Source: Eledone cirrhosa (taxonomy: Eukaryota). From it: a stretch of DNA of 64,000 bases. The stretch spans positions 5,332,001 to 5,396,000 of the forward strand of contig OZ024754.1 of assembly GCA_964016885.1 (NCBI GenBank), read 5' to 3'. This document shows positions 35,350 to 35,763 of this stretch, one piece after another. The position numbers were made by a program, and so were the translations under genes. The notes beneath the pieces were generated by a model. The model made no database searches. It had not been told where the DNA came from and saw only the letters and a program-made list of their open reading frames with translations. Positions within the stretch are counted from its first letter, which is position 1. Each line of letters starts with the position of its first letter.

Positions 35350-35352
<3 letters not shown>

Positions 35353-35538
35353 GGAACCAGTAAGACCCCGACAGCTGAGCTCAAGCCGTTTCGACGGCTA
35401 ATTCTCAGAATTAGCCGTCGAAACGGCTTGAGCTCAGCTGTCGGGGTCTTACTGGTTCCTATTACCCACTCTACTACCTCAAGTATTGAGTACTTTGGTG
35501 CGTTATGGTCCACCTGGTTCCTTACCACATTTCCTTCG

Positions 35539-35540
<2 letters not shown>
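35350..35540. mobile_element. Family B fold-back element: 56-bp perfect palindrome carrying an HHR 3' half
   Basis: Arms 35350-35405 / 35407-35462, 1-nt loop. Contains GAAA CGGCU UGAGCUC AGCUG UC GGGGUC. Tail ends ttccttcgtt|(AT)n. Confidence 0.8.
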
Positions 35541-35570
<30 letters not shown>

Positions 35571-35572
<2 letters not shown>

Positions 35573-35763
35573 CGAAAGAAATGTGGTAAGGAACCAGGTG
35601 GACCATAACGTACCAAAGTACTCAATACTTAGGGTAGTAGAGTGGGTAATAGGAACGAGTAGGACCCCGACGGCTGAGCTCAACCGTTTCGACGGCTAAT
35701 TCTGGGCAGAATTAGCCGTCGAAACGGCTTGAGCTCAGCCGTCGGGGTCCTACTCGTTCCTAT
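35571..35763. mobile_element. Family B fold-back element, opposite orientation
   Basis: Palindrome ~35649-35763 with a GGGC loop. Confidence 0.8.

Follow-up and report, generated by a model that had tools for sequence, protein, structure and literature searches.

Truncated head-to-head insertions of a Penelope-like element in Eledone cirrhosa turn at one base inside stem II of a hammerhead ribozyme

Inverted repeats that contain only one half of a hammerhead ribozyme raise the question of how the other half was lost and why the inversion lies inside a ribozyme stem. The window analysed here, a stretch of 64,000 nt from the Eledone cirrhosa genome, harbors three such structures at 35350, 35571 and 41417. 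A first-pass annotation described them as perfect palindromes and explained them by snap-back of a cDNA on the stem II hairpin, with self-primed synthesis of the second strand. All three inverted structures are indeed located there, but only one of them is a perfect palindrome. The count of three copies is likewise borne out, although a fourth copy at 45441-45541 had been missed.

Element positions are counted from the A of TTAGTCC in intact copies (TT/AGTCC), which is +1. In this numbering GAAA occupies +19 to +22, the predicted cut follows +41, and the arms end at +60 (short arm) and +140 (tail). Each palindrome in the window consists of a short and a long arm, joined head to head within a TA run, the long arm being distinguished by an extra tail of 80 nt. 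In copy 1, the short arm (35350..35405, minus strand, element +6 to about +60, ending TTCCTA in the TA run) is followed by the long arm (35406..35541, plus strand, +5 to +140). The latter comprises the 3′ strand of stem II, GAAA, stem III with a palindromic loop, GUC, the 3′ strand of stem I and the tail, and its predicted GUC cleavage site lies at 35440-35442. A (TA)n target run (35542..35570) is common to copies 1 and 2. Copy 2 has the opposite arrangement, with the long arm and its tail first (35571..35705, minus strand, +140 to +4, with a one-base deletion in the stem III region), one extra base at the junction (35706) and then the short arm (35707..35762, plus strand, +5 to +60). The region 35350-35763 thus represents two inserts with one TA run in common. 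Copy 3 belongs to a different subfamily and starts with a tail-bearing long arm (41417..41554, minus strand, +140 to +2). Its second part (41555..41616, plus strand) is composed of a 5-nt insertion repeating nearby arm sequence and a short arm that begins at -1/+1 (41560/41561). The fourth copy is a solo tail arm (45441..45541, minus strand) starting at +40, two bases before the predicted cleavage site.

The palindrome of copy 1 is perfect over 56 of 56 nt around one centre base. One arm of copy 2 lacks a single nucleotide; copy 3 deviates by two mismatches and a 1-nt deletion, its outer end is ragged, and a short piece is duplicated at its centre. Since an insert consists of a short arm plus a long arm with tail, positions 35571 and 41417 are tail ends and not palindrome ends. 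GAAA, stem III, GUC and GGGGUC are present in all three copies and CUGANGA is absent from all of them, as had been noted. They represent the 3′ half of a hammerhead, the catalytic 5′ half being found in intact copies. Rfam matched nothing in the window, where the palindrome family is represented by half motifs only. Four sets of contigs compared with the window gave heavy cover with asymmetric joints and none spanned a palindrome; these were not taken as evidence.

Genome-wide counts were obtained by exact-word or pattern search. A 23-mer from the arm has 53,660 exact matches in the 3.0-Gb genome and its reversed control has none, which excludes chance, and a 21-mer from the tail has 32,388 exact matches. 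One locus (L064) combines an inverted arm, a partial tandem and a 719-aa ORF starting at +232 in a unit of 3,118 nt. This ORF comprises a reverse transcriptase and a C-terminal endonuclease with YRDD and VIY..YIG motifs, and contains RWR (a basic variant), SDKT, CNCPDRSIC (a CxCx5C linker), CNLC (CxxC) and CKH (CxH). The corresponding traits given for the Hydra clade in the part of PMC8557442 drawn on here are RWK, DKT, the CxCx5C linker, CxxC and CxH without CCHH, together with insertion into (TA)n. Among 7,996 scored candidates, 2,054 relatives were found, the best match carrying PF01541; a Pfam scan of two ORFs, the 719-aa ORF included, returned no match. Partial tandem pseudo-LTRs, an inverted 5′-truncated copy and a one-sided tail were all observed (layouts L064 and L062), as were insertion into (TA)n and, in intact copies, a hammerhead motif in the pseudo-LTR. 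Two traits, descriptive ones in that paper, are less clear-cut: the core is mostly of the U3-A8 variant and the unit is 3,118 nt long, whereas a canonical hammerhead and a length generally below 3 kb are given for the Hydra clade in the same part of PMC8557442.

Judged by these motifs and by comparison by eye, the palindromes are 5′-truncated head-to-head insertions of a very common endonuclease-positive, Hydra-type Penelope-like element (PLE). The type of insertion is thus familiar, and it stems here from a family new to an established clade. Compared by eye, the ORF agrees motif for motif with the printed Hydra-1_Obim protein (supplement to PMC8557442, in the portion available). Among the clade members described by Craig et al. 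2021 (PMC8557442, in the sections used), Hydra-1_Obim resembles our element in its single ORF, C-terminal endonuclease, motifs, (TA)n target and hammerhead near the 3′-end. It represents a different family, whose hammerhead is listed there with a CUGA core and a short stem II, unlike the U3-A8 core, the stem II of about 55 nt, the 3.1-kb unit and the tens of thousands of stumps found here. Two other assignments were rejected. Non-LTR retrozymes are head-to-tail tandem units with a whole hammerhead each, and the inserts here are head-to-head with half a ribozyme. LTR retrotransposons have an integrase, a tRNA primer site and true LTRs, and the ORF is of the PLE type; only the run-off step discussed below is alike.

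The intact copies define what has been lost. It had been predicted that GACCCC-CUGANGA would directly adjoin the hairpin in non-palindromic copies, and a pattern search of the genome found no such site. Intact copies instead read ACCCC-YUGANAA-G about 40 nt further upstream, a motif with 5,170 pattern matches. The core pair is U3-A8 in 31 of 40 intact copies, a variant already described for Penelope-like elements (PMC4209133, in the text available), and C3 stands with A8 in eight. The native stem II of about 55 nt begins with G-C, followed by a small internal loop, a 9-pair helix and a loop region of 33 nt. All three stems are paired in 92.9% of cells in seven intact sequences; for stem II in intact copies this value is 87%, with three compensatory pairs that all come from one older copy. 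The features of a type I hammerhead (the 3-8 pair, G10.1-C11.1 and three stems) are found in intact copies only, the window copies being without the 5′ half. Free folding of the intact motif gave the hammerhead shape with a stability not above that of shuffled sequences (z 0.41). The predicted fold also places TTAG in the paired part of a small loop II hairpin, so that its conservation need not reflect a promoter. The native stem II differs from the perfect stem II of the palindromes, which is thus a mirror of the 3′ strand: the hairpin taken in the first-pass annotation for the native stem arises from the inversion itself.

A subfamily with the C3-A8 mismatch (L159, L168, L181 and others), which should weaken cleavage, has been amplified all the same. 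Another abundant family comprises a small U3-A8 hammerhead ending beside TA runs (L058, L078, L080, L126, L131, L177, L180, L197). A third hammerhead family (L231-L260) has 889 matches, is partly arranged in retrozyme-like tandem units of about 660 bp and includes one variant with TATATAA in loop II.

The substitutions shared by the two arms of each window copy had been regarded as private and as a sign that one arm was copied from the other. They turned out to be subfamily markers: both arms carry the copy-1 haplotype in 14 of 77 other inserts, and the types of copies 2 and 3 are among the commonest arm types (18 and 30 arms, respectively). In 80 pairs (nine of 89 being left out for more than eight differences), variants restricted to a single insert were found once in both arms and 29 times in one arm. 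The shared substitutions hence reflect the source subfamily of the arms and do not demonstrate arm copying. That the inverted arm is made anew with each insertion does agree with the data, as many different junctions occur among the 50 listed. Dozens of different junctions were found per subfamily, a variety which points to an origin per insertion.

Where the arms stop was determined in the first 100 inserts on contig C1, chosen by their tail end alone. Of 60 long arms at risk, 48 end between +12 and -4, a rate of 9.6% per base, compared with 0.32% in the tail, 0.14% at +44 to +60, 2.5% at +40 to +43 and 0.77% at +13 to +39. Upstream of -4 the rate is about 0.3% per base, and 12 of the 100 inserts pass this point. 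Short arms behave similarly, 54 of 67 stopping between -4 and +12. For both arms, this wall lies at the A of TT/AGTCC inside stem II, and the begin of the short arm in copy 3 coincides with it; many arms end at +2 to +7 instead of +1, the spread being +1 to +12. The turn lies at this A also in an older subfamily whose stem II sequence has changed (1,030 and 1,078 matches on the two strands), and its about 1,050 palindromes are mostly composed of a short and a tail arm.

Among 17,674 palindromes in the genome, the stem II strands are separated by 0-30 nt in 15,201 and by 31-60 nt in 2,473. A snap-back on the native stem II would keep the loop and the 5′ arm, with a gap of about 41 nt, and the short-gap class (86%) is too short to hold the native 5′ arm. 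This arm was found in none of the 50 short-gap and none of the 50 long-gap junctions listed; one of the latter keeps about 25 nt of the loop before continuing into the other arm. The long gaps consist of templated repeats of arm sequence and of A/T runs. Several of the junctions listed for contig C1 show long A/T runs directly after +1 to -3, which suggests tailing or slippage at the cDNA end, and in two of 50 listed the arms differ at a subfamily-marking base.

The junctions carry a second signal. Where both arms reach +1 with one base between them, this base is C/G in 522 cases and A/T in 79. Most intact copies have T as their native base at -1, and a pyrimidine is present in 38 of 38; the base is C in five of these, all from another subfamily, and the comparison was for this reason repeated in a subfamily with T at -1 in ten of ten intact copies (a small sample), where C/G was found at 44 of the first 50 sites out of 202. 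Junctions centred on C were observed in two subfamilies or more. In 15 loci the extra C could be assigned to the short arm (8) or to the tail arm (6), one locus having A/T, and its presence on either arm indicates that both arms behave as first-strand cDNAs. The untemplated base is a mark of a template end, and a single C, rather than an A, is the signature of cap copying. Initiators follow the consensus YYANWYY, which TTAGTCC fits. A TATA-like run is located near -29 in young subfamilies, varies between subfamilies and is absent from the older one. A 3′ splice site at TTTAG was considered and rejected: it would start the RNA at +3 with an upstream exon, and none was seen. Untemplated 5′ G residues have also been reported for L1 insertions, the passage concerned giving no cause (PMC4729875).

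The two arms appear to be separate products. Close pairs consist of one short and one tail arm in 76 of 78 cases, and the outer end of the short arm leads straight into the TA run at +60 in 62 of 68, one continuing into the tail. Among 67 two-arm inserts there are 15 whose short arm extends 15 nt or more beyond the tail arm, and in seven of these the arms share no sequence; the set of 15 remained after three of the first 18 had been dropped as internal deletions. Such inserts are not obtainable by fold-back of a tail-bearing cDNA, which contradicts the self-priming proposed at first. Several of them show microhomology of 3-7 nt, and later one-sided deletion could be the source of some. The 78 junctions are blunt (17), overlap by 1-7 nt or more (36) or contain insertions (25), a mixture as expected from end joining. 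Arms of different subfamily type were combined in one of 45 pairs, so that an insertion may be served by one RNA molecule or by two.

We consider it probable that the palindromes arise from two separately primed cDNAs which ran off the 5′-end of a capped mRNA within stem II and were joined head to head. Transcription would start at the A of TT/AGTCC, so that the mRNA begins with the 3′ half of the ribozyme only and the whole ribozyme is carried by the downstream repeat. The enzyme would cut both strands of a TA run, and each end would prime at one of two internal RNA sites. With 60 or 140 nt synthesized, each cDNA would then arrive at the 5′-end of the RNA, where the cap would often be copied as an extra C. 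The two ends would lose a few bases before being sealed bluntly, through microhomology of 1-6 nt or around short insertions of templated sequence. CUGA would accordingly be missing because of the place of RNA start and not because of ribozyme folding. For an Anolis element, cutting and extension of both target strands and two internal start sites bounding the tail have been described in vitro (PMC11167929, in the sections considered), and by analogy the fixed arm ends at +60 and +140 match such a pair of sites. Against the cap, the enzyme may habitually add an untemplated C wherever a template ends, with or without a cap. A capped start at +1 is also opposed by the lack of conservation of the TATA-like run at -29 and by the many ends at +2 to +7.

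In the least unlikely alternative, the RNA ends at +1 by processing, through a nuclease cut at the stem II hairpin, an untemplated C being added at any template end to separately primed cDNAs. It explains the wall and the extra base equally well, and the position of +1 in a paired region of loop II and the poor conservation of the TATA-like element would suit it. We nevertheless regard it as unlikely, considering the single C instead of A as a signature of cap copying, the initiator context at +1 and the pyrimidine at -1 in all 38 intact copies. In addition, Penelope transcription is known to start inside the pseudo-LTR (PMC2377424, in the part seen).

A somewhat less probable explanation is stalling of the enzyme on a longer RNA whose stem II is folded, followed by end joining of the arrested cDNAs. 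The conserved stem II structure, with the pairing frequency and the three compensatory pairs from one older copy given above, and the spread of arm ends over +1 to +12 are in its favor. A stalled enzyme should, however, be halted where it first meets a helix, at the 3′ foot (about +17 or +5), and not in the middle of a strand, and the native base at -1 should not be under-represented among centre bases (79 versus 522). Furthermore, a stem II just as long occurs in the third hammerhead family, which does not turn in this way and has kept the whole ribozyme in 29 of 30 loci. A long stem II thus forces no turn, with the reservation that another enzyme may copy that family.

The fold-back of one cDNA on the stem II hairpin with self-priming of the second strand, as proposed in the first-pass annotation, now seems very unlikely. 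It would account for arms of the same subfamily in 44 of 45 inserts, for the rough symmetry of most inserts and for some junctions with small palindromic microhomology, and self-priming has been argued from junction palindromes in rotifer Penelope elements (PMC3846280, in the text available). Contrary to its expectation, none of the 100 junctions listed retains the native 5′ arm, and the predicted fold leaves the 3′-end of a cDNA that stops at +1 unpaired. The 17 blunt junctions and the 522 with one centre base leave no stem for a primer, and it fits neither the extra C on the short arm in eight of 14 cases, nor the fixed outer end of this arm, nor the 15 inserts in which it is longer than its supposed template. 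Fold-back on stem II itself is hence largely refuted, and fold-back on 1-4 nt of microhomology may apply to a subset. Least credible of all is a fixed non-autonomous palindromic element copied whole from a few masters, which would suit the very high copy number, the fixed outer ends and arms that diverge like independent sequences (29 one-arm against one both-arm singleton variants) and is contradicted by the dozens of junctions in each subfamily and by C-centred junctions in at least two subfamilies and on either arm.

If two cDNAs do run off a capped RNA, the element may replicate by an LTR-style route with its promoter inside its own hammerhead, the palindromes being failed jumps; we put this forward tentatively and with less than even confidence. 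The mRNA would start with an inert half ribozyme and end at the self-cut of the whole ribozyme in the 3′ repeat, so that both ends of the RNA would share the 41 nt between start and cut site, which would correspond to an LTR's R region. Run-off cDNAs would be strong-stop products which jump through R to copy the rest and rebuild the pseudo-LTR, and the tens of thousands of palindromes would represent jumps that failed. Consistent with this, six of 20 arm ends in the middle region lie at +40 to +43, near the predicted cut (p about 0.005), and the fourth copy in the window likewise ends there (+40). Sequence leading back into +1 was found in 47 matches with 25 direct joins; eight of the 25 come from +40 to +42 (assessed by eye; p about 0.006), one of them being explained by microhomology. 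Joins back to +1 are very rare, however, and arms that pass the wall could be copies of read-through RNA. In the Anolis element ribozyme cleavage is dispensable in vitro, and the parts of the study drawn on report no reads ending at the cut (PMC11167929).

When 160 arms were screened for jumps leading from +1 to elsewhere in the element, no case was flagged; 111 arms were classed as inverted, 36 as native and 13 as neither. A jump was found by eye instead at L036 (C1 near 492,940), where a tail arm beginning precisely at +1 is fused to element sequence on the same strand from about 680 nt upstream, the product expected of a template jump to the wrong place.

Related systems provide most of the parts. 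In LTR retrotransposons, priming near the RNA 5′-end yields a short run-off cDNA, the minus-strand strong-stop DNA, and in LINE-1 twin priming two target ends prime two cDNAs. Different from both, no tRNA primer, integrase or poly(A) priming is involved here, and both cDNAs cover the same stretch of RNA, giving a mirror pair. Twin priming is mentioned in PMC4729875, in the portion available. The inverted 5′-truncated pseudo-LTRs of other PLEs share the head-to-head layout, the tail on one arm and the palindromic junction with our inserts; their tails are 30-40 nt long compared with 80 nt here, and their inversion points are scattered, whereas ours lies at one base with an extra C/G (PMC3846280 and PMC8557442, in the sections used). 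Self-priming on antisense RNA, as considered in those sections, is less favored by our data than two primed cDNAs on sense RNA. Anolis Poseidon (Frangieh et al. 2024, PMC11167929) is alike in the two reverse transcription start sites bounding the tail, the extension of both strands, the AT-rich target and the hammerhead just upstream; in the text available, the RNA 5′-end is not mapped and inverted ends are not explained. The U3-A8 hammerheads of Penelope-like elements (Cervera and De la Pena 2014, PMC4209133, as far as available) share the U3-A8 covariation, the palindromic loop 3 and close ribozyme pairs on opposite strands, and differ from the ones described here, which have a full 5-bp stem III and a long stem II that would hold the transcription start.

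How inverted ends form and how pseudo-LTRs are regenerated is stated as open in the passages seen of PMC2377424, PMC3846280 and PMC8557442, the first of which places the Penelope promoter inside the pseudo-LTR and sees no obvious mechanism for its regeneration. In the literature covered, with subscription papers, older reviews and preprint supplements represented thinly, we found no link between PLE inverted ends and a capped start or strong-stop DNA, nor did a search on the capped start in the accessible parts of bioRxiv 10.64898/2026.07.22.740005, PMC12910113 and PMC4729875. As far as found, the layout itself is known, and the wall with its extra base is a real and apparently unreported signal. 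The family supplies independent junctions by the thousand, with ends that are exact to the base and marked by an additional base, and these make an open mechanistic question testable. [quoted passage not shown] Start sites of other such families could then also be mapped by a simple genomic method, from the wall and the extra G.

Besides the palindrome family, the window harbors long simple-repeat arrays at 20588-21505 and 37747-38192, which dominate the list of inverted repeats. A GAAAC-GUC half motif in a different repeat is located at 36735-36760 (plus strand), upstream of which no recognisable CUGA box was seen. A complete small hammerhead with a canonical CUGAUGA core lies at 36409-36440 (plus strand) and belongs to another repeat family, with relatives in loci L099 and L171.
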